Assembly (NCBI GenBank): GCA_028703535.1 | Contig: JAQVMQ010000001.1 | Span: 8,818 to 72,817, forward strand | Direction: 5' to 3' | DNA: 64,000 bases | Source: Candidatus Omnitrophota bacterium | Lineage (GTDB): Bacteria > Omnitrophota > Gorgyraeia > Duberdicusellales > 4484-171 | Part shown: piece by piece, positions 17,967-33,665 of the stretch | Position numbering within the stretch: the stretch's first letter is position 1 | Layout: the number at the start of each line of letters is the position of its first letter | The notes under the pieces: generated by a model | Databases searched by the model: none | The model's input: only the letters and a program-made list of their open reading frames with translations | What the model was told of the DNA's origin: nothing | Translations under genes and position numbers: made by a program

Positions 17967-18536
17967 TTAACGTTTTATATTAGGTAATTTTTCCCACCAT
18001 AACATGCTTTCATCGGATTTTATATGGGCCCATAGACTAAGAGCAGTTTTTGTGCGTAAAAGTTTAGCTGATTTTTTAAGAAATTTTTCAGCCTGAGGAT
18101 ATCCATAATTAATATACTCTTTTGCCTGTATAAGACATTCTATTATATCGGCATCCCGGGCGATCAGACTTTCTCCTGTTTTTTGTTCCAAATACTCTTT
18201 TCTAAGACCGGCCAGTTCCGAACGGATATTCTCAGGTAAAAATTCTATTTGTTCAAAAAACGCTTTATTTTCTATCTCTGGCAGATCAATATAACGTTGT
18301 GCCATCTTATGTAAATCCGTTATACGAGCCTCATGAATATCATTAAAAAGTGTCATTAATAACACTTTAAACTTGTCCGCTCTTTCCATCCCGGCCAAAA
18401 TGTAACCTATAACCGCACAACGGAAACAATGATCCGCAACAGATTCAGGGTTTTTTATACCCAGCACGTTCCACCCGGATCTTGGCATATTTTTCAACAT
18501 ACCCGCCTCAGCAATGAACTGTGCCAAAAAATCCAT
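17967..18536 (-). CDS. HD-domain phosphohydrolase (YfbR-like 5'-nucleotidase family)
   Basis: MDFLAQFIAEAGMLKNMPRSGW start typical of this family; SVADHCFR...NDIHEARITDL (H...HD...D). The track ORF extends to 18578, but that part lies inside rlmB, so I prefer the ATG at 18534-18536. Confidence 0.75.
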   Translation of the reverse strand: MDFLAQFIAEAGMLKNMPRSGWNVLGIKNPESVADHCFRCAVIGYILAGMERADKFKVLLMTLFNDIHEARITDLHKMAQRYIDLPEIENKAFFEQIEFLPENIRSELAGLRKEYLEQKTGESLIARDADIIECLIQAKEYINYGYPQAEKFLKKSAKLLRTKTALSLWAHIKSDESMLWWEKLPNIKR

Positions 18537-18537
18537 T

Positions 18538-19317
18538 TTATTTCTTTTCATACAAACATCTCTGTTTAACGGCTTCATAACATATAATCGCAGCCGCAGT
18601 ATTAATATTTAAAGATAACGGTGCACCCTCCATAGGTATAGATATTTTCAAATCTAATACTTTAGCTATCCCGTCACGTATCCCTTTACCTTCAGAGCCT
18701 AACACAATACCAAGCGGAAACGGCATTTTAGTCTCATATATACTATCCGCCAAATTGTCCGCCATAGTACCCGCAACCCAATAACCTGAATCTTTTGCCT
18801 GTCGTACCGCACTAACGATATTAGTGACCTTAGCCACAGGCACATAATTCTCACCGCCGGATGCAATATGTAAAACTGTCTCAGTAATATCACACGCATT
18901 ATATTTCGGAATAACTACTGCAAAGCCGCCAAGACACGCGCACAAACGTATTACAGCCCCCACATTCACCGGATCAAACACCGAATCAAGAAAGACTAAT
19001 ATACGTTTGTCATCAGCCGTAAGAATGTCCGAAAAATCAGTAAATGCGAACTGTTTTATCTTTGCGATAACACCCTGGTGATTTTCAACGTTTTTTATCC
19101 TTGCTAAATCCCTGGCAGACACTACCTCAACTTCTATACGTTGAGACTCGCTGAATTTTATTATATCTTTGTCCTTAAATCCTTCTTTAAAAAATATTTT
19201 TTTTATCGAAGCGGGATTATTTTTAAGACGTTCAAAAACTGAATTTTTCCCATACAGAAAAAAATTTCCTCTAGCAGTTTTATCTTCTATCTTTTTATAT
19301 TTATAATTCCTGCCCAT
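18538..19317 (-). CDS. rlmB: TrmH/SpoU-family RNA 2'-O-methyltransferase (RlmB-like)
   Basis: N-terminal substrate-binding domain (GKNSVFERLKNNP) plus SPOUT C-terminus (LVFLDSVFDPVNVGAVIR...LGSEGKGI...LNINTAAAI). Confidence 0.8.
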   Translation of the reverse strand: MGRNYKYKKIEDKTARGNFFLYGKNSVFERLKNNPASIKKIFFKEGFKDKDIIKFSESQRIEVEVVSARDLARIKNVENHQGVIAKIKQFAFTDFSDILTADDKRILVFLDSVFDPVNVGAVIRLCACLGGFAVVIPKYNACDITETVLHIASGGENYVPVAKVTNIVSAVRQAKDSGYWVAGTMADNLADSIYETKMPFPLGIVLGSEGKGIRDGIAKVLDLKISIPMEGAPLSLNINTAAAIICYEAVKQRCLYEKK

Positions 19318-19325
19318 AGATTTAA

Positions 19326-19673
19326 TTATTCCGACAAATAACTGTTAAGCTCTTTTATTTTTTGAACACAAATCTGCACGGCCTTAGCGCACTGTGTAAT
19401 ATCTTCCTGGGAAAAATAATTTGTACCCAGAGATGCCATGATTCCGGAAGAACTTTCATATAACTGACCCGCCTGCATAAACAGTTTCTGTGCTTCAAAC
19501 GCTTTTGTTTTGTCTAAAGTTGCATCAGTCAGATTAACCGCCGCAGTAAAAAGCATACTGGCAGCTTTAATATCAGAAAAAGCCTTCTGTCTTAACTCAT
19601 CAGGTGAGTTTTGTCCGAAACAAAGAAAAGAAAACACACAACACACAGCAAAAAAACAACTAATTACACGCAT
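19326..19673 (-). CDS. Small secreted hypothetical protein (115 aa)
   Basis: Signal peptide-like MRVISCFFAVCCVFSFLCFG; the remainder looks helical. No family recognised. Confidence 0.5.
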   Translation of the reverse strand: MRVISCFFAVCCVFSFLCFGQNSPDELRQKAFSDIKAASMLFTAAVNLTDATLDKTKAFEAQKLFMQAGQLYESSSGIMASLGTNYFSQEDITQCAKAVQICVQKIKELNSYLSE

Positions 19674-19674
19674 A

Positions 19675-20310
19675 TCATCCCCCTGTAATTTTTAAAAAGG
19701 TTAATATCATATTAAAAATAATCTTATATATTCCGTTAATAACCGGATCTAAAAAATTAAAATATAAAAGTACGAATATTATTATAATACCGTACCTCTC
19801 AAGTTTAATCAAAATTTTCTTTACATTTTTCGGAGCAAGTGCCAAAACAACCCGCGAACCATCTAACGGTGGTATCGGTATTAAATTAAACGTAGCCAAT
19901 AATACATTTACCTGTATTAGCATAGTAAAAAACATTTCAAAAAAATCGTTCATAAGAAAATTTAAACGTACTAAGAAAAACGCTCCGACAAAAGCAATAA
20001 TCAGATTAACGAAACACCCGGCAAGAGAAACTGCAATAAACGCAAACTTATTGGGCCACAGACATGAATAATCTACAGGCACCGGCTTTGCCCACCCGAA
20101 CCCTACAAAAAGCAAAAAGAATGTTCCCAGGAAATCAAAATGTACTTTCGGATTAAGTGAAAGACGACCTGCATTCTTGGCTGTATCGTCACCAAATTTA
20201 TACGCTGTCCAGCCATGGGCAACTTCATGAAGTATAACAGAAAACGACAAGGCGATAAATAACGCCAAAAACAGAAACGGTTCCTTAAATAAAAGTGAGA
20301 TAAAACCCAA
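19675..20310 (-). CDS. M50 site-2 protease family membrane metalloprotease
   Basis: LHEVAHGW (HExxH) in a TM helix; NLIPIPPLDGSRV (NxxPxxxLDG). TTG start in the track; no in-frame ATG lies upstream of the HExxH. Confidence 0.8.
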   Translation of the reverse strand: MGFISLLFKEPFLFLALFIALSFSVILHEVAHGWTAYKFGDDTAKNAGRLSLNPKVHFDFLGTFFLLFVGFGWAKPVPVDYSCLWPNKFAFIAVSLAGCFVNLIIAFVGAFFLVRLNFLMNDFFEMFFTMLIQVNVLLATFNLIPIPPLDGSRVVLALAPKNVKKILIKLERYGIIIIFVLLYFNFLDPVINGIYKIIFNMILTFLKITGG

Positions 20311-20345
20311 AATAGAACTTTATTTTTTTAGAATAATAGATATCT

Positions 20346-21770
20346 TTATCTATCTTCAATATTGACATAATTTTTATCAAGCGGCCCGGAATATATAGCA
20401 CGCGGTCTAAAAATACGATTATTCTTCAAATACTCGATAATCCTGGCTGTCCACCCCGCGACACGACTTACCGCAAATAACGGTGTAAAAATTTCAGGAC
20501 TTATACCCAAAACATGATAAACTATACCTGAATAAAAATCAACATTAGGGAAAATCTTTTTCTCTTTCCCTAAAGTCTCCAAAACTTCTTTTTCAAGGAC
20601 CTTCGCAGTCTTAAACAGATTTTTGACCTCATCAGAGTCACTTTTAGAAACCAAATAGTTTGCTAAAGGTCCTAATATGCGTGCCCGCGGATCATAAGCT
20701 TTGTATACACGATGCCCAAAGCCCATGACTTTTTGTTTTTTACTGCATGCCCGTTCATACCACTTCTTAACATTATCCGGCGAACCAATGCTCTTAAGCA
20801 TGTTAATAACCTGCTCGTTAGCCCCGCCATGTAACGGCCCATTTAAAGCCGCTATCCCGGACCCTACGGACAGATAAATATCAGATAAAGTTGACGCAAC
20901 AACCATAGACGCAAAAGTACTAGCATTCATGCCATGATCAGCGTGTAATATCAAAGAAACATCCATTATTCTTTCCTGCTCGGCAGTAGGCACTTTACCC
21001 GTCATCATATATAAGAAATTTGCCGCATGGCTCAAATCTTCCCTTGGCTCAAGAGGAAACTTATCCTGGCGCATTCTGGAAATAGACGCAGTCAAGGACG
21101 CGCATCCGGCAATAAGCCGGTGACAGGCAACTTCGCTATTAGCAGATTCCAACAAAGTTTTTTTATCAATTTTACCTTTCTTGAGTTCCTGATGAAACTC
21201 ATATATCGCATGTTGCTCACCGATCGGCAGTGTTTCCATCGGAATAGAATCGGCATCAGTATGTATTATCCCCGATATATCCACTTTTCCTGACGCCAGG
21301 TCGTCCGATGTAAACTCACAGCGCATAAGTGTAGTACCCAAACGTAATGCGGCCATAGGATTCATCTTTCCTATAGGAAAACCGAAAAGAAGACGTATAG
21401 TATCAGAAACTTTACGACATGATATCAATTTTTTAGAAAATTTATCAAGCTGATTGGCAGTCGGCAATTTGCCGTATAATAACAAATAAGAAACTTCCTC
21501 ATACGAGGAATATGCGCAAAGATCAAAAATATCGTATCCCCTGTAAATGAGTAAACCCTTAGCCCCATTGACATATCCTATCTTACTTTCACAAGCGATA
21601 GCACCCTCAAGACCAGGTCCTACAACACAATTAATAGGCCATTGAGGAAACTTGGCAATAGGCGCATCATTAATATTATCCGTCTCAGCATGCGCGAGTT
21701 GTTTAGCTTCAAGAATAAGCTTAGTTATAGTTTTGGTTTTGTCATTACGTTTTTTGATATTATCCCTCAT
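20346..21770 (-). CDS. gltA: Citrate synthase
   Basis: GFGHRVYKAYDPRA, LHADHGMNASTF, SRVAGW motifs; 474 aa with a short N-terminal extension. Confidence 0.92.
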   Translation of the reverse strand: MRDNIKKRNDKTKTITKLILEAKQLAHAETDNINDAPIAKFPQWPINCVVGPGLEGAIACESKIGYVNGAKGLLIYRGYDIFDLCAYSSYEEVSYLLLYGKLPTANQLDKFSKKLISCRKVSDTIRLLFGFPIGKMNPMAALRLGTTLMRCEFTSDDLASGKVDISGIIHTDADSIPMETLPIGEQHAIYEFHQELKKGKIDKKTLLESANSEVACHRLIAGCASLTASISRMRQDKFPLEPREDLSHAANFLYMMTGKVPTAEQERIMDVSLILHADHGMNASTFASMVVASTLSDIYLSVGSGIAALNGPLHGGANEQVINMLKSIGSPDNVKKWYERACSKKQKVMGFGHRVYKAYDPRARILGPLANYLVSKSDSDEVKNLFKTAKVLEKEVLETLGKEKKIFPNVDFYSGIVYHVLGISPEIFTPLFAVSRVAGWTARIIEYLKNNRIFRPRAIYSGPLDKNYVNIEDR

Positions 21771-21813
21771 AGCCCCGCCTATTTTAACCCTTGCAAAATA
21801 AAAACATCTACTT

Positions 21814-21851
21814 AAAAAGAAAGCGCCTCAATACATAAGCACTGAGGCGCC
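21814..21851 (-). terminator. Rho-independent terminator after the RRM gene
   Basis: Minus strand: GCGCCTCA-gtgcttatgtat-TGAGGCGC followed by TTTCTTTTT. Stem arms at 21823-21830 and 21843-21850. Confidence 0.7.
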
Positions 21852-21868
21852 TTATTACCAAACAAAAA

Positions 21869-22138
21869 TTATTTGAATTCTCTGCGTGGTTTGTCTTCTT
21901 TAGGACGAGCCTCGTTTACACGAAGTTCACGGCCTAAGAATTCTTTTCCGTTCAATTCATCAACAGCTTTCTGAGCTTGATCATTTGTCGGCATATCGAC
22001 AAAACAAAAGCCCTTTGAACGACCGCTAAATTTATCGGAAATAATACGCACAGCTGATACCTCACCATACTGCGCGAATAATTCGCGTACTTCATCCTCT
22101 TTAGCGTTAAACGAAAGATTCCCTACATAAATGTTCAC
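21869..22138 (-). CDS. RRM-type (RNP-1/RNP-2) RNA-binding protein
   Basis: NIYVGNLSF (RNP-2) and KGFCFVDM (RNP-1). I prefer the GTG start at 22136-22138, 7 nt after GGAGGG, giving the canonical MNIYVGNL N-terminus. The track ORF starts at 22165. Confidence 0.85.
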   Translation of the reverse strand: MNIYVGNLSFNAKEDEVRELFAQYGEVSAVRIISDKFSGRSKGFCFVDMPTNDQAQKAVDELNGKEFLGRELRVNEARPKEDKPRREFK

Positions 22139-22431
22139 TCTACTACCCTCCAACAATACCGTCATTTACTTCTTCTATTAGTTCCATACAAATGACCAAA
22201 AATCCGGAACTAATCACAGTTATATAACAATAACCTAGTTTCAATTTATAAAACGCATAAAAACACAACTATTTAAATCGAATATATTTTATTAATAGAC
22301 AAGAATTTCGGTAAGCACAAATCATCGCGGCAAACACGTCAGACATCTAATCAAACTTATTCATTACATTTAACAGTCACGTTCAAACACGTATAGCGTA
22401 ATCAAAGAACATTCAACTTATCTTAACACAT

Positions 22432-22459
22432 ATCATATACGTTAATTTATATATGTCAA
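22432..22459 (-). promoter_or_regulatory. Candidate promoter TTGACA-N16-TATGAT, which would give a ~290-nt leader for the RRM gene
   Basis: Sequence match only. The TTGACA is one arm of an 8-bp inverted repeat (22452-22459 / 22498-22505). Confidence 0.3.
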
Positions 22460-22643
22460 GTTAAATAAATATAATATTTTAGGCAAAAAATGAAAATTTG
22501 ACATAAATGCAAAAAAAAACGCTAAATAAACATATCCGCATAAAAAAATGTATTCTAGTATATAGAGAAAATGAGCTAATGTTACCTAAGGCATTGATAG
22601 CCATGGCTTTATGCAATATGGCTTATCCTGAGCACGCAACATC

Positions 22644-24389
22644 CTAAAAAGTTATCTGAAATCCTACCTTAAAATCCATCCCGTCACCCTCAACATCATA
22701 TATTTCATAATAATTTCTATCAAATAAATTTTTTATATCCCAAAATATTTTCATATTTTCATTAAAAGTATAATCCCCCCCGCAATTCGCTAAAAATCTT
22801 CCACCAAAAACAGAATGATCCTCATATACCAACCCGATATTCATTGAATATCGGCCTTTTTGCATATAGAAATTCAATACGGCCTTATCCTTGGGATATA
22901 AAAACGCGTATTTAGAATAATCATATAATTGGCTCTTATCCATATTCATCCTTGTATACTCAAATGACACCTTTTCAATAAAAAATCTATTTATTTCATA
23001 TTCGGCATATATATCCAATCCCATAACGTCTAACTTACCGACATTCAACGCGGAATAATATATATCAGACTCATTACGCGTCCAGTCAATAGTATCTCTC
23101 TGCCTTCTATAAAACCCATCGACACGCGCATTGAATATAGTGTTCTCAAAATCAATCCCCAGCTCAAAATTATCTGTGCGTTGAGGCGACAACCTGTCAT
23201 TCCCTTTATTAGACGGCGAATCATAATAAAGCTCCGTAAAAGACGGCATCCGATATTTTCTGACAGCATCAAACGTCACATCCATAGCTTCATTCAAAGG
23301 CATTATACAATTAATTTTAGGGATAAACTTAAACGGCCCATTATCCAAAAAAGTAACTGCAGGCAAAACTTCCAATTGCATGTTCATAATTTTTATTTTT
23401 TTAAAAAATATCAATTCGGATATATCTCTATAATCATCGCCTAAAGTGTTAGATCTTATACTTTCTCTTTTAACATCCAATGTCACTCCGCTAAGTTCAT
23501 CAGCCGCCATTACATCAGCCTTGATACCCGCGACATAAGTCTTGTGGTCATTACGGTAACTGTCAGGCGCATCTCTATCGAGCCAAAAAGTATCTTTAGT
23601 CATTGTTATATACGGACTTAAAGAATACAGTAAACTGTCAGTCTCTGTAGCCATTTTCAAAATTAACAGATCCTGAACAATACGTTCTTCTTCACGCTCA
23701 TACCACGGCGCTGCATACGCTCCGCCTATTCCAAACCTTCTGTAAGAATGTCCCAATAAAAGATCAACATTTATTTCCTGGATTTTACCGGAAAAAGAAT
23801 ATGTAAATATATTACTATCACCGTCTGTATTATCCGATAATCCATCTGTTCTGTCGGCACTAAACGAAAACCTTTGATATTTCTTCTCCGAGGAAGAACT
23901 TACCGTCATCATAGAGCTAAGAAATCCTCTGTTTCCGCTCATTACTCTTAGCGTTTTTTCACTGTCACGATTTTGGGATATATTTAGATTAATACTCTGT
24001 CCATTCCTATCCACGTCCACACTTCCAATATCTGTCAACACAATCGGAAGCATAAGATTAAAATGTCCTGTCTGAGGATTATTAAGTTTGATACCGTTTA
24101 AACGTATATCACTATCTTCAAATATCGCACATCTGATAGAGAAATCCGCCAAACCCATTTGGCCTGCTCTATTTTGTAAATCAACTCCCGAATTATAATA
24201 TAATAAATCTGCAATATCTTTTGCGGAATAAACATTCGATTCATGTTTATTTATCAAAGAGTTTTCGTCACTCGTTCCGGTCACAGTTATTTGTCCGAGA
24301 TCAATAATATCATCAGAATAAGCACAGACTATCCCGCCAAATAAACAAATAAACATACTACTTAAATAAACAAATAAGTATTTTTTCAT
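22644..24389 (-). CDS. TonB-dependent-receptor-like outer-membrane beta-barrel protein (short, 581 aa)
   Basis: Signal peptide; plug-like N-terminus (ITVTGT...DIADLLYYNSGVDLQNRAG...FSIRC); alternating beta-strand pattern; terminal aromatic (FQITF). Confidence 0.7.
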   Translation of the reverse strand: MKKYLFVYLSSMFICLFGGIVCAYSDDIIDLGQITVTGTSDENSLINKHESNVYSAKDIADLLYYNSGVDLQNRAGQMGLADFSIRCAIFEDSDIRLNGIKLNNPQTGHFNLMLPIVLTDIGSVDVDRNGQSINLNISQNRDSEKTLRVMSGNRGFLSSMMTVSSSSEKKYQRFSFSADRTDGLSDNTDGDSNIFTYSFSGKIQEINVDLLLGHSYRRFGIGGAYAAPWYEREEERIVQDLLILKMATETDSLLYSLSPYITMTKDTFWLDRDAPDSYRNDHKTYVAGIKADVMAADELSGVTLDVKRESIRSNTLGDDYRDISELIFFKKIKIMNMQLEVLPAVTFLDNGPFKFIPKINCIMPLNEAMDVTFDAVRKYRMPSFTELYYDSPSNKGNDRLSPQRTDNFELGIDFENTIFNARVDGFYRRQRDTIDWTRNESDIYYSALNVGKLDVMGLDIYAEYEINRFFIEKVSFEYTRMNMDKSQLYDYSKYAFLYPKDKAVLNFYMQKGRYSMNIGLVYEDHSVFGGRFLANCGGDYTFNENMKIFWDIKNLFDRNYYEIYDVEGDGMDFKVGFQITF

Positions 24390-24406
24390 AATAACTAAAA
24401 CAAATT

Positions 24407-26341
24407 CTATTTTTTAATATAATTTAAAAGTCCACCAGCTTTAATAATGGATTTTTGACGTTGAGTTAAGTGATATGTCACCGGAATTTTTAACATTTTG
24501 GTTTTGTTTTCAATAATTAGGTCACTATCATTATCAAGTGATAAAATTATGTCGTTTATTACAAGTTCATCACCAAACTCAAGAGACTCATAATTTAGGT
24601 TATCAACAAAAACCAACGGTAAAATCCCAAAATTAACGAGGTTGGCGGCATGAATCCGCTCAAATGACCTTGAAATAATGGCTTTTACCCCTAAATACAT
24701 AGGACACAATGCCGCATGTTCACGACTTGAACCCTGTCCGTAACTTTCACCCGCAACAATAAACACAGCCTTCCCATTATCCCTTAGCGCCGCGGCACGG
24801 CTGCTAAAATCAGGGTCAACCCCTTCAAAAACAAATTCAGAGTATTTCTCTATATTAGATCTATACTTTAGGCGTACACCTGCCGGCATAATATGGTCAG
24901 TTGTTATTTTATCGCCTAGTTTAATTGCGATATTCCCGTTATAACGATCAGATAACGTGACATTTTTAGGCGGATTACCTATATTCGGCCCGCGAATAAT
25001 TTCAATATTTTTTGAAGAGGCCTCCGGTGCAATAATCATACCATCATCTATCAAAAAGTTTGGCTCATCCTTAATATCAGGAAAAACAGAAGATTCGACA
25101 CTCAACGGATCAATAAATTCACCATAAACCGCGGCTAAAGCTGCCGACTCCGGCGAAACAAGATAAATCCCTGCAGATTCAGTACCCGACCTGCCTTTAA
25201 AATTACGGTTATTGGTACGTACTGAGACAGCCCCTGTCTTAGGCGCTTGACCGTTTCCTATACAAAACCCGCAGGCACTCTCCATAATACGCGCACCTGA
25301 ATCAATCATAACTGCAAGATCACCCGTCCGCGCGATCATTGAAAAAACCTGTTTAGAACCCGGCGCGACAATAAGAGAAGTACCCGGATGGACTTTTTTA
25401 TCTTTTAACATCGCCGCGACAATCTTTAAATCCTTTAAAGATGAATTAGTACAACTACCGATAGCCACCTGATCAACTTTCTTACCGGCAATATCTTTTA
25501 TAGGCACAACATTACCCGGAGAATCAGGCAATGCTACCATCGGACATATACTAGAAAGCTCAATTTCTATAACACTGTCATACACAGCATCTTTATCAGG
25601 AGATAACGGAACGAATTTGTCAGCACGGCCCTGAGCTTTAAGAAATTTTTCAGTTTTGATATCAGAACAAAATACACTTGTCGTCACACCTGTTTCTGCC
25701 CCCATATTGGCTATAGTAGCACGTTCGGGCACAGACAGATTCATTACACCGTCACCTGTATATTCTAAAACCGTATTTACATTACCTTTAGTGCCGATAA
25801 TACTCAAAACAGTTAAAATAACATCTTTAGCCGATACGCCTTTACGCAAATCACCTTTTATAATAATATTGACTACTTTAGGCGCAACAAGATAAAACGC
25901 ACCGCCTGCCATAGCCGATGCGACATCAAGCCCCCCGGCACCTATAGCTATCATCCCCAACCCTCCGCACGTCGGCGTATGACTATCACTGCCAAGAAGT
26001 GTTTTGCCAGGCGCGGCAAACCTTTCTAAATGTACCTGATGACATATCCCATTGCCGGGCCGTGAAAAGTATATTCCGTATTTTTGGGCTATAGTCTGTA
26101 AATATAGGTGGTCGTCAGCATTCTCAAAACCCTGCTGTAGAGTATTATGGTCTACATAGCTTACAGAAAGTTCTGTTTTTACTTTATCCATACCCAACGA
26201 CTCAAACTGAAGATATGCCATCGTCCCAGTAGCATCCTGTGTAAGGGTTTGATCTATCTTTATAGCTATCTCATTACCCGGCTTTAATTCACCCTCGATA
26301 AGATGGGCTTTCAATATTTTATATGTAAGATTCTCAGGCAT
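24407..26341 (-). CDS. acn: Aconitate hydratase (644-aa form, swivel domain C-terminal)
   Basis: GSDSHT, GSCTNSS, ACGFCIGNGQ and NRNFKGRSG: all three Fe-S cysteines and the catalytic motifs are present. Confidence 0.9.
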   Translation of the reverse strand: MPENLTYKILKAHLIEGELKPGNEIAIKIDQTLTQDATGTMAYLQFESLGMDKVKTELSVSYVDHNTLQQGFENADDHLYLQTIAQKYGIYFSRPGNGICHQVHLERFAAPGKTLLGSDSHTPTCGGLGMIAIGAGGLDVASAMAGGAFYLVAPKVVNIIIKGDLRKGVSAKDVILTVLSIIGTKGNVNTVLEYTGDGVMNLSVPERATIANMGAETGVTTSVFCSDIKTEKFLKAQGRADKFVPLSPDKDAVYDSVIEIELSSICPMVALPDSPGNVVPIKDIAGKKVDQVAIGSCTNSSLKDLKIVAAMLKDKKVHPGTSLIVAPGSKQVFSMIARTGDLAVMIDSGARIMESACGFCIGNGQAPKTGAVSVRTNNRNFKGRSGTESAGIYLVSPESAALAAVYGEFIDPLSVESSVFPDIKDEPNFLIDDGMIIAPEASSKNIEIIRGPNIGNPPKNVTLSDRYNGNIAIKLGDKITTDHIMPAGVRLKYRSNIEKYSEFVFEGVDPDFSSRAAALRDNGKAVFIVAGESYGQGSSREHAALCPMYLGVKAIISRSFERIHAANLVNFGILPLVFVDNLNYESLEFGDELVINDIILSLDNDSDLIIENKTKMLKIPVTYHLTQRQKSIIKAGGLLNYIKK

Positions 26342-26368
26342 TGGGTTATCTCCTATTCTGTTTCAAGG

Positions 26369-26396
26369 ATTATACCAAAAAAAGAAGATATTTGAA
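26369..26396 (-). promoter_or_regulatory. Candidate promoter TTCAAA-N16-(TGg)TATAAT for aconitase
   Basis: Reverse complement of attata (26369-26374) preceded by TGG, with tttgaa at 26391-26396. About 28 nt upstream of the ATG, with a GGAG SD in between. Confidence 0.45.
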
Positions 26397-26462
26397 TAAT
26401 TTTATAAAAACATTTTTCACTATAACCGCAAAAAAATCCCGTCATCAGATGCATTATATGGA

Positions 26463-27830
26463 CTAGAAAGTATGAAAGATTTTAATGAAATCATCACGGA
26501 TTAGCCCATTCCACCTCTTTTGTTTTACATCCGCGTTATTAGACATTCTTACCAATCCTTTCATTGCATTAAAATCAGCATGAACCACCCAATTATACAG
26601 ATCCTTGTATTTGTCCACTCTGAAATTATATTGGCAATTTAAAAAAAAGATGAAGTCATTTGTAAAACAATCAGAAAAATCCATAACGGTCTTCTCCTTA
26701 ATATCATTCCAGGATTCATTATTATCTCTATACTTTTTTTTCCGTTTTTTTAAAAGTTTTGTCAATACAGGAAAAACCTTCCTATAATCGTATCCTGCCG
26801 CAGTTTTAAAAGCATTATGCTTAAGCTCAAAATTCTCCGGCTCATTAAGCAAACTCCCGGTAATCAAATCTATCAATTTAGATTTTGATATTTCAGGCCC
26901 ATTAGTGCCTTGTTGCAAAACTTGTAATAAATAGCCGTTATATTCATCTTTGATCAGCTCTTTGTTCCCGCCCCAGTCGGTAGTAATAACAGGAACTCCG
27001 CAAGCCAAAGCCTCAATATTTACAAAAGGAAAAGTTTCACCCGGCGTGATTGTAGGATTAACAAAAATATCCGACTGAAAAAGCAGTTCATATTTTTCGT
27101 CACCAAACTTCACACCTTCAAAAATAACATGCTTTGATATCTCTAGTCTCTTGACCTTTTCTTCCAATTCATGAACAAAATCGGATTTGCAGTTATCATC
27201 AATGCCTGTCCCGCTTAAAGGACCTATTATCTTTAAAGAAACGTTTTTTACTTTAGAGATAATCCCAGGCATAATGTCAATTAATAAACCGATTCCTTTA
27301 CTCGCAACCAATCGCCCCATGAAAGTTATGGTTTTATCAACCGGCCTGCGACAGATGTCAGATTCTACTACTTTCTGTATTTTTTTATTATCTACAAAAT
27401 TATACATAACATGAACTCTGTTTTTTTCAGAAATATGCAAAAAAGACTGTTTCGCATACTCACACGGCGCATAAATAATATCCTCTTCCCGTAATAACGG
27501 CACAATATATGTATATTTATAAAGCCATGCGAACATACTGTGAAGCTTGACTATAAAAGGAATATTTAACCCGAATTTCTCTCTTATTAAAAAAGCTTGT
27601 ATCAAAAAAGTGAAGCCGTCAACATACAGATAATCAAAGTCATCTTCATTTATTCTTCTAAAAAATTCTTCCAATCTATTCAACCCGCTAAACGATATTA
27701 TTTTGACATTAACATATTCAGAAAAATAATCCAGAAATGTTTTATTAATATTTATTGAACTAATAGATTCTTTTTCTAAAAAATCCAGATAACAAACATT
27801 AATAACATATTTTTCTTTTGTCTTTTCCAT
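26463..27830 (-). CDS. GT4-family (GT-B fold) glycosyltransferase with ~100-aa uncharacterised C-terminal extension
   Basis: FMGRLVASKGI...EGVKFGDEKYELLFQSDIFVNPTITPGETFPFVNIEALACGVPVITTDWGGNKELI (EX7E-type motif). C-terminal KKRKKKYRDNN... region has no recognised family. Confidence 0.8.
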   Translation of the reverse strand: MEKTKEKYVINVCYLDFLEKESISSININKTFLDYFSEYVNVKIISFSGLNRLEEFFRRINEDDFDYLYVDGFTFLIQAFLIREKFGLNIPFIVKLHSMFAWLYKYTYIVPLLREEDIIYAPCEYAKQSFLHISEKNRVHVMYNFVDNKKIQKVVESDICRRPVDKTITFMGRLVASKGIGLLIDIMPGIISKVKNVSLKIIGPLSGTGIDDNCKSDFVHELEEKVKRLEISKHVIFEGVKFGDEKYELLFQSDIFVNPTITPGETFPFVNIEALACGVPVITTDWGGNKELIKDEYNGYLLQVLQQGTNGPEISKSKLIDLITGSLLNEPENFELKHNAFKTAAGYDYRKVFPVLTKLLKKRKKKYRDNNESWNDIKEKTVMDFSDCFTNDFIFFLNCQYNFRVDKYKDLYNWVVHADFNAMKGLVRMSNNADVKQKRWNGLIRDDFIKIFHTF

Positions 27831-27885
27831 TTGTTTTAATTGATAAGACCATCACAAAAACTATAATAAGCCATATCAGATAAGG

Positions 27886-28119
27886 TCAGTCTTCAAGAAG
27901 GTATGTCCTGATTTGCTCCGGTTTGAGTCCCGCCTGTCCGGCGCTACGTCCGGCCGCGGCAGTACACAGGACGAAAGTTCTGGTACCAACTGCAGTAAAC
28001 CCATAGCAACGTGCATAAAATGTCGAAAACCAGGCACCGGGCGCAACCATGCATGCGGCTAATATAGCCTGGCTGGTATCAAGCTCTATTTCCGTAACTT
28101 TCGGTTTAGTATACTGCAT
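27886..28119 (-). CDS. Small Cys-containing peptide, paralog A (77 aa); candidate modified-peptide precursor
   Basis: MQYTKPKVTEIELDTSQAILAACMVAPGAWF... Paralogous to 28282-28515. Coding is supported by 8 synonymous versus 1 non-synonymous codon difference across the shared 27-codon N-terminal block. Confidence 0.75.
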   Translation of the reverse strand: MQYTKPKVTEIELDTSQAILAACMVAPGAWFSTFYARCYGFTAVGTRTFVLCTAAAGRSAGQAGLKPEQIRTYLLED

Positions 28120-28281
28120 ATCTTTTATATTATAGGATTTAAAAAATATTTCAAGTGTGTTTTATAAAAAATATATATTCCAGAAGTATTATCTCCATAT
28201 CTTAAGGTTTTGTCCTAACCTAAAAGTCGATCAAATTATTTATCAAAAAAAATCAAATCGCAATCTTCTTTTGGCGAAAAA

Positions 28282-28515
28282 CTAGGACGGCTTATCCTGA
28301 TTAGCCCCGATTTGACTTGCCCCTGCACCACCGGTACGCCCAACAGGAGAAGTCCTGCAACCCCAAACCGTTCCAGTCCCAACTGCCGTAAAAGCATAGC
28401 ATACTGAAGGTAACAAATAAAACCATGCACCCGGCGCGACCATGCATGCGGCTAATATAGCTTGACTGATATCAAGTTCTATTTCTGTAACTTTGGGTTT
28501 TCTGTATTGTTTCAT
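28282..28515 (-). CDS. Small Cys-containing peptide, paralog B (77 aa); candidate modified-peptide precursor
   Basis: MKQYRKPKVTEIELDISQAILAACMVAPGAWF... Same Cys spacing as paralog A (C-x14-C-x13-C), shared FTAVGT, divergent C-terminus. Confidence 0.75.
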   Translation of the reverse strand: MKQYRKPKVTEIELDISQAILAACMVAPGAWFYLLPSVCYAFTAVGTGTVWGCRTSPVGRTGGAGASQIGANQDKPS

Positions 28516-28693
28516 TCAACTCATATTACCATATTTTTTGTTTTATCAAATAAGATCTCATTCTAACTGTTTTTTGTGCTAAAAAATTATTTTGCGACAT
28601 TAGAATGCAGCCGGCCTCTTTTTTTTCAAAGAGCTATTAATGCGTAAACACATTGCCCTAATTATACCTTCTAACACTGACAGCTAAGGGCTA

Positions 28694-28739
28694 CCCGCCA
28701 CACCATTATTTTATTTAGGCGGGTCCGCCTCTGGCAGAA
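28694..28739. repeat. Intergenic ~50-nt double-hairpin element, copy 1 (CCCGCC-N18-GGCGGG + TCCGCCTCTGGCAGA)
   Basis: Aligns with copies at 37115-37162 and 41798-41846. Lies about 10 nt beyond the cmoB stop codon. Confidence 0.65.
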
Positions 28740-28749
28740 CAGCTAATAG

Positions 28750-29718
28750 CTATTGTGGTTTTTTCGCTAATACAACCGCCCGTCTAGGTGCCGGATAACC
28801 TTCAACTGTTATATCTTTATTTAACGGATCTAAAAAATCGTTTAAAGATTCAAAAGTCATCCAATCAGTAACGCGCTGCTCATCAGAGGTAGTTTTGCTT
28901 ATATCACTTACTTTTAGATCAACATATCTGCATTTTTTAAGCCAATTGAGCAAAGTCTCCACTGACGGTATAAACCATACATTAGACATCTTGGCATATC
29001 TGTCCCGCGGTGTTAAAGCATACCCTTGAGGGCCATCTACCACCAATGTCTCAAGAACAAGCTCACCTCCGGATTTAAGAAATGAATAGATCTGTATAAG
29101 GTGATCAAACGGCGAACGACGATGATACAAAAGTCCCATCGAAAAAACCGTATCAAAATATCCGCAATTATAAGGTATATCATCAACCCCAACAGGCAAA
29201 ACATTTACCTTGTCAGACTTCAAGTATCTGTTTAATAGCTGAAACTGCATAAAATACAAAAGCGTCGGATCTACACCCATAACAAACTCCGCGCCGGCAC
29301 CTAAAGCTCTTAAACAATGATAGCCGTTGGCTGCGCCTATATCCAATATTTTCCTGCCGGAAATATCAGATATTCCATCTTTAAACCTATCCCATTTAAT
29401 ATCAGAACGCCATTCTGTATCTATATTTATACCGAAAATACTGTACGGTCCCTTACGCCAAGGCATATATTGCCTAAGGATCTCATATAATTTTGCGTAT
29501 GAAACGTCGTCAATTTCATCACGCTGTCCTATTTTTATTACATTACCATCTAACTCGAAAAATGAAGGATTCACATCAGGCAGTTCATCATAAAGATTAC
29601 GCCATCTCGGCATATCTCCATGCTTGGAGCTCTTTATTATATCTAAACTTTTACGCTCTAAAATTGCAAGCTCCTGACTATATATATTTTTAAAAAACTT
29701 TCTAATATTTTTAGTCAT
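28750..29718 (-). CDS. cmoB: tRNA U34 carboxymethyltransferase CmoB
   Basis: Class I MTase core ILDIGAANGYH. Family-typical WRSDIKWDR and C-terminal region; adjacent to cmoA. ATG at 29716-29718 preferred over the track's TTG at 29724. Confidence 0.85.
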   Translation of the reverse strand: MTKNIRKFFKNIYSQELAILERKSLDIIKSSKHGDMPRWRNLYDELPDVNPSFFELDGNVIKIGQRDEIDDVSYAKLYEILRQYMPWRKGPYSIFGINIDTEWRSDIKWDRFKDGISDISGRKILDIGAANGYHCLRALGAGAEFVMGVDPTLLYFMQFQLLNRYLKSDKVNVLPVGVDDIPYNCGYFDTVFSMGLLYHRRSPFDHLIQIYSFLKSGGELVLETLVVDGPQGYALTPRDRYAKMSNVWFIPSVETLLNWLKKCRYVDLKVSDISKTTSDEQRVTDWMTFESLNDFLDPLNKDITVEGYPAPRRAVVLAKKPQ

Positions 29719-29769
29719 ATGCAATCAAAAAAACTACTCCTTTTATAGCTTACAATTTACGTCTTACAA

Positions 29770-30495
29770 CTATTTCATGGCTAATAATGATACGAAATTA
29801 AAACACTGAAACCATTTATATGTTTTTTTGAACCCAGATCTTTTCAAGCGTTTTATATGAGTATCTATGGTGTCAGATACAAGCACATTTTCAAGTGCCG
29901 TACGTTTACGGGATATCTCAAGCTTGGAATACCCGTTAAGCTCTTTAAAGACATGATAGAGTTCAGTCTGCAACATATCTTCATTTTTGTCTTTAAATTT
30001 TACTTTTTCAGATAATAAAAGTATGCCGCCCGGTTTCATACCTTTATATATTTTTTTTAATAACTTAAGCCGGCTGTCAGGTGATATAAATTGAAGAGTA
30101 AGATTTAATATGACCATAGAAGCATTACCTATATGTATATTGCATATATCGTCAGTCACGATGTTAATCACATTTTTATCCGAAAAAACCGAAAGTTTGG
30201 CCTTACATAATTCAGTCATAGCCTTGGAACTGTCAACTGCGATAAGCGAACTATTTTTAGCCTTCAAGTTCTCAAGTACCGCTTTTGAAGCTATTCCTGT
30301 AGATGCTCCCAAATCGTAACAATTAGTATTGTCCTGTATATATTTGCCGGCAAGAAGCCCGATCATCGCGACAATTGACGCATAACCCGGGACAGACCGG
30401 GATATCATATCATCAAAAACTGATGCAACAGTTTCATCAAAGACGAAATCACCCATATTAGGGTCTTTAGACAAAAATATATCGTCGCGTTTCAT
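29770..30495 (-). CDS. cmoA: Carboxy-S-adenosyl-L-methionine synthase CmoA
   Basis: FVFDETVASVFDDMISRSVPGYASIV...CYDLGASTG...LNLTLQF. Start moved to the ATG at 30493-30495, because the track ORF start (30570) overlaps ahcY. Confidence 0.85.
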   Translation of the reverse strand: MKRDDIFLSKDPNMGDFVFDETVASVFDDMISRSVPGYASIVAMIGLLAGKYIQDNTNCYDLGASTGIASKAVLENLKAKNSSLIAVDSSKAMTELCKAKLSVFSDKNVINIVTDDICNIHIGNASMVILNLTLQFISPDSRLKLLKKIYKGMKPGGILLLSEKVKFKDKNEDMLQTELYHVFKELNGYSKLEISRKRTALENVLVSDTIDTHIKRLKRSGFKKTYKWFQCFNFVSLLAMK

Positions 30496-30502
30496 CCGGT
30501 AA

Positions 30503-31903
30503 TCAATATCTATAATAATCAGGTTTATACGGCCCGCCTTTATCAACACCAATATATTTTGCCTGTTCATCAGTCAATCGTGTAAGCTTAACACCTATTT
30601 TGGCTAAATGCAGGCGCGCGACTTCTTCATCAAGTTTTTTTGAAAGACAATAAACCTTCGGTTCATACTTGTCCCTGTTCACCCAGAGATCAATCTGCGC
30701 CAAAACTTGATTAGTAAAAGAATTAGACATTACATATGACGGATGCCCCGTAGCACAGCCTAAATTCACAAGTCTTCCTTCAGCTAACAGAAATATTTCA
30801 TGGCCATCAGGAAAAGTATATTTATCTACCTGCGGTTTAATATTTAATTTTTTTATACCCTTGAAATTCTCAAGTGCCGCTACCTGTATCTCATTATCAA
30901 AATGCCCTATATTACAAACAATAGCCTGATCTTTCATCTTAAGCATATGTTCTATACGTATTATATCCTTATTCCCGGTAGTAGTAACATAAATATCAGC
31001 TATACCCAAAGTATCCTCTATCGGCTTAACCTCATAACCTGCCATAGCAGCCTGCAACGCGCATATCGGATCAATCTCTGTAACTATAACACGCGCGCCA
31101 AATCCACGCAACGATTGGGCTGAACCTTTACCTACATCACCATAGCCGCATACAACCGCTACTTTACCGGCAATCATAACATCGGTCGCTCTTTTTATTC
31201 CGTCCGACAATGATTCACGACAGCCGTATAAATTATCAAATTTTGATTTCGTTACCGAATCATTAACATTTATTGCCGGTACACGCAAGGTTTCATCTTT
31301 GGCCATTTGATATAACCGATGAACACCTGTTGTTGTTTCCTCAGATACTCCTTTCCATTCCTCAACCAAATTATGCCATTTAGAAGGTGTTTGCTTAAGT
31401 CCCTCCTCTATAAGCTTAATAAGCTCTTTCTCATCTTCACCGCAATTCGTCTTTTTTAGAATCGCCGGGCTATCTTCGGCGTCACAACCCATATGCAACA
31501 TCAATGTTGCGTCACCTCCGTCATCTACTATAAGATTCGGCCCTTTATTACCGGGGAATGTCAAAGCCCGCTCGGTACACCACCAATACTCAGCAAGCGT
31601 TTCACCTTTCCACGCGAACACCGGCACACCGGATCTCGCTATAGCTGCCGCCGCATGATCTTGGGTAGAAAAAATATTACAACTTGCCCAACGGACCTGA
31701 GCACCAAGCTCAACAAGCGTTTCTATCAATACTGCTGTTTGTATTGTCATATGCAATGACCCGGATATACGTACACCTTTAAGGGGTTTATTTTTTGAAT
31801 ATTTATCACGTACAGCCATAAGCCCCGGCATCTCACTTTGCGCTATATCAATCTCACGCCGTCCGAAATCAGCCAAAGCTATATCTTTTACCTTATAATC
31901 CAT
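30503..31903 (-). CDS. ahcY: Adenosylhomocysteinase
   Basis: [39 protein letters not shown]-binding site, C-terminal YRY. Start at the ATG 31901-31903 behind an AAAGGAG SD; the track ORF starts at 31927. Confidence 0.95.
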
Positions 31904-31904
31904 T

Positions 31905-32675
31905 TTATTCTCCTTTGTTAAATGCAAAACGTTTAATTATTAATACTATCACTGTAATAATACACCGTAAATAGCCGGCAATAAAACTATCGGGCTTGAT
32001 TTTCTTAGCCCAAAACGGTGAATGTTTATAATAACATTTTATAAATACTCTGCCAATAAATAATTTAGACAAATAACCGTCCCGAAAAGACGACAAAACC
32101 TTGACCTCTTCGGACATAGCGCTCCCGTATAATGCCGTGGCAATAAAACATCCTTCACGGCTTGTTTTCTTCACACTCGACGCCACAACTGATACGGCAG
32201 AACCATTTTTAAAATAATCAAAAACATCTTTTTGACATTTTTTAAAAAAAACACCATGCCCAGTGCATTTTCGTAATTTGAGCTCTAAAACATGTGCTGT
32301 CTCATGTATAAAAGTATTAAAAAAATCATTTTCGTCAAGACATTCAAATAAATTGCAGATCTTATCTTTAAATCGCAGAAACCGTTTTGCTTTTAATGGG
32401 AAAATAACTATCGACTTCGGACGCGCTTTACCGTACCATGTAGCCCCGCGCCAGGTAATCTTATATTTATCCGATAAATACACCGGTATCCCCGGAATAT
32501 CAAAATAACGTACGGCTTTATTGTAAAAACTTTGTATTTCAGACCTGGCGGCTGATTTATATTTCCTAAATTTTGCGTCTGATCTTATTCGTTTATAGAA
32601 CTGCCCCAAAGTCATACCTGACTCGTTTGCTATGCCTTCAGTATAATTTTTAAAATCTAAATATTTTTCAAGCAT
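31905..32675 (-). CDS. SprT-like HExxH metalloprotease domain protein with C-terminal [10 protein letters not shown] membrane-anchor module
   Basis: [10 protein letters not shown] (HExxH). [27 protein letters not shown]... followed by a terminal hydrophobic helix ([11 protein letters not shown]). Confidence 0.6.
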
Positions 32676-32697
32676 TGATCAATAAATTTATAAGAAT

Positions 32698-32726
32698 TTG
32701 AAATATATGTATAACTACTATATAAT
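32698..32726 (+). promoter_or_regulatory. Candidate consensus-like promoter TTGAAA-N17-TATAAT placed for a leaderless transcript of the CPBP gene
   Basis: TTGAAA 32698-32703, TATAAT 32721-32726, ATG at 32733 only 6 nt after the -10. No SD. Confidence 0.5.
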
Positions 32727-32732
32727 CTCTTT

Positions 32733-33665
32733 ATGCGTAAAACAACATTTTTTCTTGTTATATTACTCACATGGCTGTCAGTTATGGCCTTTTATACCAA
32801 CCAAATACTACTATCCGGCAGCAGGCCCATTAAAACTATCAGAGAAATAACCGACATCTCAGCTCTGCCGGTAACGCCGCAGCTTATCGCCCTGGCCTCC
32901 GTAACGTGGCTTTTCCTTATTTTAGGAATAATAAATCTCTTTTCGATAATTTTTTCTAAAAAAGAGATTTATCCCAATAATAAGACTTCTCCGGTAATAC
33001 CCCAAAAAACTGTTCTAAAAATACTTTTTATGCTCATATTTTATTTTCTTCTCGTAACGTTCGGCATATCAAAAATAATTAACACAAAACTAATAGTCGA
33101 GCCTAATACAGCCTCCGCGATAGCCAACGCTATCTTACTCATAGGCTCAGCAGGCATACTACTCCAATTCGCGCCACGTGAGATAACAAGGATCAACTTC
33201 ACCCTTAATAATTTTAAATTAGCATTTAAAACTTTCACCGCTATATTGCCGGCGTGCCTGCTCGCAAAAATTATCAATATCAACTTAATCCATTTCTTTA
33301 ACATACCGGAAACTGTAAATCCCGCTATAAAGATACTTAATACAACTACCGACATAAAAACCGTGATACTGCTTTTTCTTCTGGTAAGCGTACTTGCGCC
33401 TATAACTGAAGAAATATTTTTTAGAGGGACATTATTCTCGGCCCTGCGAATAAAACGCAACTTCATGATATCCGCGATTTCAACCGCACTGCTTTTTTCT
33501 CTAATGCATGAAATATCCGCCGATATATTACCGCTTTTTTTCATCGGGATGTTTCTTGCATGGTCTTATGAACATTCTAAAGAGATATCTGTACCGATAA
33601 TGGTACACGCTTTGTTCAACGGCTGGATATCAATAATGCTTTTACTTATCAAAGCTTCCTTATAA
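32733..33665 (+). CDS. CPBP-family (CAAX/Abi) intramembrane glutamic protease
   Basis: Polytopic; EEIFFRG, FSLMHE and HALFN motifs. Confidence 0.85.
   Translation: MRKTTFFLVILLTWLSVMAFYTNQILLSGSRPIKTIREITDISALPVTPQLIALASVTWLFLILGIINLFSIIFSKKEIYPNNKTSPVIPQKTVLKILFMLIFYFLLVTFGISKIINTKLIVEPNTASAIANAILLIGSAGILLQFAPREITRINFTLNNFKLAFKTFTAILPACLLAKIININLIHFFNIPETVNPAIKILNTTTDIKTVILLFLLVSVLAPITEEIFFRGTLFSALRIKRNFMISAISTALLFSLMHEISADILPLFFIGMFLAWSYEHSKEISVPIMVHALFNGWISIMLLLIKASL

Follow-up and report, generated by a model that had tools for sequence, protein, structure and literature searches.

Does a glycosyltransferase gene that directly follows two genes for small cysteine-containing peptides identify the enzyme that modifies these peptides, or does the maturation machinery reside elsewhere in the genome? 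The question is raised by a locus in a 64,000-nucleotide (nt) stretch of contig JAQVMQ010000001.1 from a Candidatus Omnitrophota bacterium (hereafter the window; positions in it follow the numbering of the whole stretch), in which two tandem paralogous genes, here denoted pepA and pepB, precede a gene for a GT4-type glycosyltransferase (GT), all on the minus strand:

28282..28515, minus strand: pepA, 77 amino acids (aa), PHP69_00160, an intact family member
27886..28119, minus strand: pepB, 77 aa as read, a frameshift allele
26463..27830, minus strand: GT4-type glycosyltransferase, 455 aa, starting 55 nt after pepB

In the initial annotation of this DNA, the three genes were interpreted as a self-contained glycopeptide cassette with the GT as the sole candidate tailoring enzyme; the coordinates of the two 77-aa open reading frames (ORFs) and of the GT ORF on which this interpretation was built were confirmed here. 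The follow-up analysis points to a different answer. Judging from sequence comparison, pepA and pepB are members of a large, unannotated peptide family centered on Omnitrophota, and they are probably precursors of peptides made on the ribosome and modified after translation (RiPPs) that are matured in trans by a ScmC-PqqD-radical SAM cassette, which may also phosphorylate the C-terminal Ser.

Neither peptide shows a match in Pfam or NCBIfam, where the family as a whole has no model, and a word-indexed protein search with pepA returned only pepA itself and pepB. An exhaustive HMMER search over 1.8 billion representatives (threshold E<=1e-3) detected 27 representative proteins, mostly 72-98 aa long, several of which are named in the profile search as hypothetical proteins of Omnitrophica metagenome-assembled genomes (MAGs), often several per contig; pepA is identical to an NCBI protein of a Candidatus Omnitrophica MAG (PHP69_00160). 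When 185,579 species genomes were scanned with a degenerate DNA pattern designed by hand on the leader, 28 stretches matched, namely 26 in two Omnitrophota MAGs (20 in STF1_189 and 6 in MFD13423 bin5) and 2 in Nitrospira. Altogether, 91 distinct members were recovered with a local hidden Markov model (HMM) run over all fetched loci, by which pepA is scored at E 1e-28. The MAG STF1_189 encodes 63 distinct members in the 127 kb examined, and the tandem arrays of family genes comprise up to seven copies.

The signature of the family was computed from 77 complete Omnitrophota members. The leader conforms to M-K-K-Y-x-x-P-K-I-x-x-[IV]-x-L-D-x-x-Q-A-[IV]-L-x-x-C, and the motif Y-x-x-P-x-[ILV] is present in 76 of these sequences; motifs of this type are known from the leaders of lasso peptides and of other peptides that depend on a RiPP recognition element (RRE), and the resemblance of the N-terminus to leaders of modified peptides, pointed out in the initial annotation, holds across the family. 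Exactly three Cys residues are found in 68 of the 77 members; among these 68, K or R follows the third Cys at position +5 in 60 and G at position +6 in 58. The distance from the third Cys to the end is 22-25 residues, and the terminal residue is Ser in 75 of 77 sequences (PS in 54, GS in 12), the two that lack it being pepB of the window and its copy in locus L001, both of which are frameshifted (see below). Pairwise identity among 72 members declines from 61% in the leader to 28% between the first and the third Cys and to 9% in the tail, and the core is variable and rich in G, S, T and A. The architecture of a RiPP precursor originally described for the two peptides, in which the genes are duplicated and a conserved leader is joined to a variable core with Cys residues, is thus upheld in the wider family.

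In pepA, the leader reads MKQYRKPKVTEIELDISQAILAAC, the first conserved Cys is Cys24, the core Cys residues are Cys39 and Cys53, the G-R pair is found at Cys53+6/+7, one residue later than the usual +5/+6 of the family, and the C-terminus is KPS. AlphaFold yielded no confident fold for this peptide (pLDDT, the predicted local distance difference test score, 53.6; predicted TM-score, pTM, 0.19; alignment of 21 sequences). Two readings of the N-terminal region were rejected: a lipoprotein signal at L-A-A-C, which is preceded by an acidic, non-hydrophobic segment, and a double-glycine cleavage site after the first Cys, where Gly-Gly is not conserved (pepA has APGA). A truncated family-like ORF in Nitrospira palsa_1310 (L026, 4223-4483), with an intact leader and a core that is cut short, lies beside an rve-type transposase and is probably a decayed copy.

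The candidate maturation enzymes became apparent from the wider genomic context of the family. A search with the ScmC-like protein of the Omnitrophota locus L030 returned 17 proteins; all those with a named source belong to Omnitrophota, including PHP69_00500 of the MAG to which the window belongs. The contig that carries PHP69_00500 (L038; GC content 36.8%, compared with 37.8% in the window) encodes, in this order, a CYTH (CyaB-like) protein, ScmC (PF27840), PqqD, a radical SAM/SPASM protein, two further radical SAM proteins and a type I phosphodiesterase. This order is repeated in two other Omnitrophota contigs, including L042, which additionally encodes an ABC exporter, and a shorter ScmC-PqqD-phosphodiesterase version is found in one complete genome. 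A PqqD protein and a radical SAM/SPASM maturase, the pair expected of a PqqD/RRE-dependent radical SAM/SPASM RiPP pathway, are thus encoded in the same genome (L038), and the GT is not the sole candidate tailoring enzyme of this MAG. The absence of an adjacent radical SAM gene, also stressed in the initial annotation, is real locally, and no homologs of the cassette proteins are encoded in the window; for the genome it does not hold, since the cassette is located on another contig of the same MAG. The ScmC-like proteins retain an intact Walker A motif (GxSGxGKS), and the only PDB sequences matched by ScmC were ABC transporters and PEPCK, through generic P-loop similarity. The CYTH gene lies directly before ScmC in L030 (3098-3649), L038 (8673-9230), L042 (9394-9972) and one ENA contig, although not in L039, and the CYTH protein of L038 scores above the threshold set in NCBIfam for class IV adenylate cyclase CyaB; the CYTH and phosphodiesterase genes of the cassette are compatible with phosphate chemistry.

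A physical link between peptides and maturases emerged when the neighboring proteins were clustered: L030 and the Nitrospira locus L031 share three of them, a radical SAM protein (E 1e-42), PqqD (4e-16) and an HprK-like protein (6e-15). On the minus strand of L031, the order is a GT-B-like protein (a weak match), a methyltransferase, PqqD, a radical SAM protein, a radical SAM/SPASM protein, two family-like peptides, an HprK-related protein and another radical SAM protein. The two peptides share the leader motif of the family and end in PRPS and PRAS, and the start of the HprK-related gene overlaps the 3' end of the second peptide gene. L030 encodes a radical SAM/SPASM protein, PqqD, an HprK-related/ScmC-like protein, a CYTH protein and a signal-peptidase-I-like protein; ~4 kb upstream lies a family peptide. 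Linkage between precursor and maturase is direct in L031, partial in L030, at 4 kb, and absent from the window, L038, L039 and L042; no family peptide or other obvious precursor was found inside the Omnitrophota cassettes L038, L039 and L042. The signal-peptidase-I-like protein of L030 (3840-4847, 335 aa), encoded beside the STF1_189 cassette, has a domain of the archaeal-type signal peptidase I (E 1e-10) and could act as the leader peptidase; nothing equivalent was found in L038.

Combining these observations, we propose that the family is a hyper-expanded set of ~75-aa RiPP-precursor-like peptides, in which each gene appears to form a small transcription unit of its own and the tandem arrays are scattered genome-wide. 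The N-terminal ~24 residues, in which Y-x-x-P-x-[ILV] precedes L-D-x-x-Q-A-[IV]-L-x-x-C, would be bound as a leader by the PqqD-type recognition protein, which would then deliver the variable core, rich in Gly, Ser, Thr and Ala and containing the conserved Cys residues, to radical SAM/SPASM cross-linking enzymes. By analogy, ScmC, an HPr-kinase-related P-loop protein, may act on the near-invariant C-terminal Ser. The enzymes being encoded in one cassette elsewhere in the genome, a single cassette would serve many dispersed precursors.

Several observations weigh against this model. In Omnitrophota, the connection between peptides and cassette consists of co-occurrence in two genomes, a single 4-kb proximity and the analogy with Nitrospira. 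The matches of the ScmC proteins to the HprK-related kinase A/B models are weak (E 5e-7 to 2e-10) and fall well short of the cut-offs, a kinase activity on Ser is ascribed to them by analogy, and no leader peptidase was identified in the cassette of the window organism. Furthermore, conservation in the peptides continues past the leader, in the positions of the Cys residues, the motif [ST]-[VP]-[KR]-G, the constant distance from the third Cys to the end and the terminal [PG]-S, and whole-length conservation of this kind would also be expected of a small folded or secreted protein; the AlphaFold test for a fold drew on 21 sequences only. The peptides might, in that case, be small proteins with Cys residues that are secreted or structural and remain unmodified, for instance a variable set of surface proteins, adhesins or toxins, with the conserved N-terminus as a targeting signal and the cassette unrelated to them. 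The very high copy number and the individual strong promoters would suit such abundant proteins, and most copies have no adjoining maturase. However, the N-terminus, with Glu and Asp residues and without a hydrophobic h-region, carries no signal of the Sec, Tat or lipoprotein type, three Cys residues are an odd number for disulfides, and the predicted fold is of low confidence; moreover, the family-like peptides of Nitrospira are embedded in an operon with radical SAM, PqqD and HprK-like genes, whereas the Omnitrophota cassettes have no precursor of their own. On balance, we regard unmodified proteins as an unlikely explanation. Even less can be said for the idea that the small ORFs are not translated at all, being chance ORFs over a GC-rich repeat or parts of a structured RNA. 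The segments of pepA and pepB are indeed GC-rich islands (54-57%, against a background of ~35%), but this richness follows from a core that is rich in Gly, Ala, Ser, Thr, Pro and Arg, and Rfam searches of the whole window and of the locus gave nothing meaningful, which rules out RNA as the explanation of the islands. Within the 27-codon block KPKV...AWF, 9 codons differ between pepA and pepB, 8 synonymously and 1 non-synonymously, exactly as counted in the initial annotation, and selection on a translated product is backed by a ratio of non-synonymous to synonymous differences (pN/pS) between pepA and intact pepB of 0.10 over residues 1-32, compared with 0.38 over the remainder; in addition, frame, start, Cys positions and terminal Ser are retained in the 91 distinct members. 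By these measures, the two genes are protein-coding, and the notion of untranslated ORFs is effectively refuted, with next to no probability left to it.

The remaining alternative is the one suggested by the gene order itself, namely that the adjacent GT4 enzyme acts on pepA and pepB, either in a stand-alone glycopeptide cassette or through a locus-specific extra step on the radical SAM pathway. That the enzyme is of the GT4 type and has an extra C-terminal segment was confirmed: Pfam matches are Glycos_transf_1 (residues 165-303, E 1e-25) and Glyco_transf_4 (residues 54-147, E 1e-6), the best PDB match is the BshA-like GT4 structure 2jjm (E 2e-7), and all NCBIfam matches are far below the cut-offs. 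Residues ~340-455 (~115 aa) have no significant match in Pfam or NCBIfam, the AlphaFold model computed from the single sequence is unusable (pLDDT 38), and a BLASTP comparison of the C-terminal 119 aa with PqqD detected no similarity, so the earlier suggestion of a peptide-recognition domain in this segment finds no counterpart in PqqD/RRE proteins. The GT lies behind pepB on the same strand, no terminator is predicted in the interval, the enzyme is an orphan with no other polysaccharide genes nearby, and its C-terminal extension belongs to no assigned family, all of which would fit a dedicated enzyme; nevertheless, the GT has its own promoter-like site. When the whole GT and, separately, its C-terminal 120 aa were compared by phmmer with every ORF of all loci, homologs across 37 loci (~270 kb, with ~90 further family members) were limited to the same locus in L001, apart from one weak match to an unrelated, ordinary 350-aa GT4 in L007, located 4 kb away on the opposite strand. 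Scanning the metagenomes with the GT likewise retrieved no more than this locus and a single unrelated GT. None of the other family clusters, including the second one in the MAG of the window (L002), has a GT of this or any other kind next to it, seven further contexts identified by exact protein look-up consist of housekeeping genes such as those for EF-Tu, SMC, IMPDH, GpsA, the shikimate pathway and operons of ribosomal proteins, and all-against-all clustering of the neighboring ORFs revealed no enzyme family that is recurrently adjacent to the peptides. In the metagenome collection, the GT has no close relatives beyond the same locus, and conserved synteny with the peptides is accordingly lacking. 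The initial annotation had itself named homologs mostly lacking an adjacent GT as the observation that would count against its proposal, and this is what was found; the self-contained glycopeptide cassette is not supported, as family homologs occur elsewhere without this GT. Two further observations might seem to favor glycosylation. The Nitrospira locus L031 also contains a GT-B-like gene (a weak match to MJ1255, E 1e-3) together with a methyltransferase, but its product is unrelated to the GT of the window. Phosphoglycosylation of the C-terminal Ser is known in pseudomycoidin (PMC8498205), where, however, the sugar is added by a nucleotidyltransferase and not by a GT4 enzyme. We therefore consider pepA and pepB as GT4 substrates to be distinctly improbable, and the GT is probably an incidental, unrelated neighbor of pepB.

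The state of pepB itself calls for comment, as its C-terminus deviates from that of the family:

27937..27938, minus strand: pepB deletion site, GGG to GG, with an adjacent C>A (BLASTN of L040 against the window)

In the DNA alignment of pepA and pepB, similarity holds to the 3' end and needs a 1-nt gap. The alternative frame of pepB ends in TGGTQTGANQDIPS before a stop codon, matching the pepA tail GGAGASQIGANQDKPS, and the ancestral frame would stop at 27893-27895, giving a 75-aa peptide that ends in GANQDIPS. The JGI contig L040 (99.5% identical) keeps GGG and encodes an intact 75-aa peptide ending in IPS, whereas the deletion is common to the window and the independent ENA contig L001 (99.6% identical), so that it is a polymorphism between strains or, alternatively, a homopolymer error present in both sequences. 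The 77-aa length and the C-terminal tail originally attributed to pepB rest on the frameshifted reading, and the description of the tail is an artefact of the 1-nt deletion. In the strain of the window, pepB may be inactivated or altered by the frameshift, with loss of the conserved C-terminus.

Both peptide genes are preceded by promoter-like elements:

28523..28549, minus strand: pepA promoter-like element, TTGATA, 15 nt, TAATAT (read from the sequence)
28127..28154, minus strand: pepB promoter-like element, TTGAAA, 16 nt, TAATAT (promoter scan)

The pepA element was not flagged by the promoter scan because its spacer is 15 nt, and the region is conserved with the upstream region of pepB in the DNA alignment. 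In both genes, the -10-like TAATAT (28523-28528 and 28127-28132, respectively) ends 7 nt before the ATG and no Shine-Dalgarno sequence is present; many paralogs (L006, L009, L010, L013 and L024) have a TATAAT that ends 5-9 nt before the ATG. This geometry suggests that the peptide genes are transcribed as leaderless mRNAs. Subsets of the STF1_189 paralogs share duplicated upstream motifs, such as TCTGTGTTAATCCTTG..CTTAAAA (L008, L012, L016, L019, L021 and L033), and in an overlapping subset (L016, L020, L028 and L032) TTTTTACTTTTACCTTTTTACTTGGAGCGAAGCGA is located directly before the ATG; these motifs may represent alternative promoters or 5' elements that were duplicated together with the genes.

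The genes that flank the unit in the window are housekeeping genes: CmoB and CmoA-like methyltransferases and AhcY upstream, and aconitase, a TonB-dependent receptor and citrate synthase downstream. The spacers of 234 nt upstream and 121 nt downstream, and the promoter-like site ahead of aconitase (TTCAAA-16-TATAAT, matching at 10 of 12 positions), were found as initially annotated. The ORFs of AhcY (30503-31927) and of the CmoA-like methyltransferase (29770-30570), on the same strand, overlap by 68 nt (30503-30570), and the true start of the latter is probably downstream of the longest-ORF start. A CAAX/Rce1-like (CPBP) intramembrane protease, of a family often tied to bacteriocin immunity or processing, is encoded ~4 kb from the peptides (32733-33665, plus strand).

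How does the inferred system relate to those already described? The closest counterpart is the SynChlorMet (Scm) cassette (TIGR04248-04251, PF27840). The cassette of the MAG includes a ScmC-family protein with a PF27840 match, the models matched by its PqqD homolog include ScmD, and the PqqE-like radical SAM/SPASM proteins match ScmE/ScmF among others. The scores are, however, far below the equivalog cut-offs (ScmC, 22-26 bits against 125; ScmD, 34-35 against 100; ScmE/F, 62-86 against 400), and the Omnitrophota version differs by three radical SAM genes and the conserved CYTH and phosphodiesterase genes. To our knowledge, no precursor is assigned in the TIGRFAM description of the Scm cassette; the peptide family would be a candidate substrate for this cassette type.

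With the phosphorylated subclass of lasso peptides (paeninodin, pseudomycoidin), in which HPr-kinase homologs phosphorylate the linear precursors at the C-terminal Ser side chain (PMC8498205), the family shares the C-terminal Ser and an HPr-kinase-like protein in the cassette. A leader motif of the Y-x-x-P-x-L type, to which a PqqD/RRE protein binds in lasso systems, is a further common feature. Unlike lasso systems, the cassettes L030, L031, L038, L039 and L042 contain no lasso cyclase or B2 protease but radical SAM proteins instead, and the family peptides have a greater length, a core of ~50 aa and Cys residues that are conserved. The many paralogous precursors with a conserved leader and a hypervariable core, dispersed over a small genome at a distance from a single set of enzymes, recall the prochlorosins. 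In Prochlorococcus, a single LanM serves ~30 scattered ProcA precursors; in the present family, the leader is not of the Nif11/NHLP type with a GG site, the enzymes are radical SAM/SPASM proteins rather than LanM, and no lanthipeptide synthetase was found. Glycocins (sublancin, glycocin F) resemble the locus in that a small Cys-containing peptide adjoins a GT gene. They differ in several respects: the enzyme of the window is GT4/GT-B with no match to GT2 enzymes (SunS/GccA), the family has three Cys residues whereas glycocins have four in nested disulfides, a double-glycine leader is lacking, no C39-ABC exporter was found among the genes scanned around the peptides (17967-33665), the neighbors include no thiol-disulfide genes, and adjacency of GT and peptides is not conserved across the family loci. 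In sum, the system is like an RRE-dependent radical SAM RiPP pathway with dispersed precursors in the style of prochlorosins and a C-terminal step like that of the lasso kinases, and it lies outside the glycocins, the lasso peptides and the curated Scm equivalogs. Literature searches on Scm-type cassettes and on Omnitrophota radical SAM precursors gave nothing on the family or the cassette, and for Omnitrophota and RiPPs they gave only general surveys of biosynthetic gene clusters.

A more far-reaching version of the model, which we offer tentatively, is that the family is the substrate set of ScmC-type cassettes, with a single cassette converting 60 or more dispersed, individually promoted, possibly leaderless-transcribed precursors to a combinatorial library of Cys-cross-linked, C-terminally phospho-modified peptides, two of which the adjacent GT4 might glycosylate in the strain of the window. 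For genome mining, the locus illustrates that a single enzyme adjoining two peptide genes is weak evidence, the informative signal having come here from the other loci of the family. If the model is correct, an orphan type of ScmC/PqqD/radical SAM cassette would gain a very large, concrete set of candidate substrates, and it would make testable predictions, namely cross-links at the three conserved Cys residues and a modified terminal Ser. The ultra-small Omnitrophota would then possess a radical SAM counterpart of the prochlorosins, and these genome-reduced, possibly host-dependent bacteria would reserve dozens of genes, each with its own promoter, for a single peptide family, which would bear on how the uncultured Omnitrophota nanobacteria interact with other cells.

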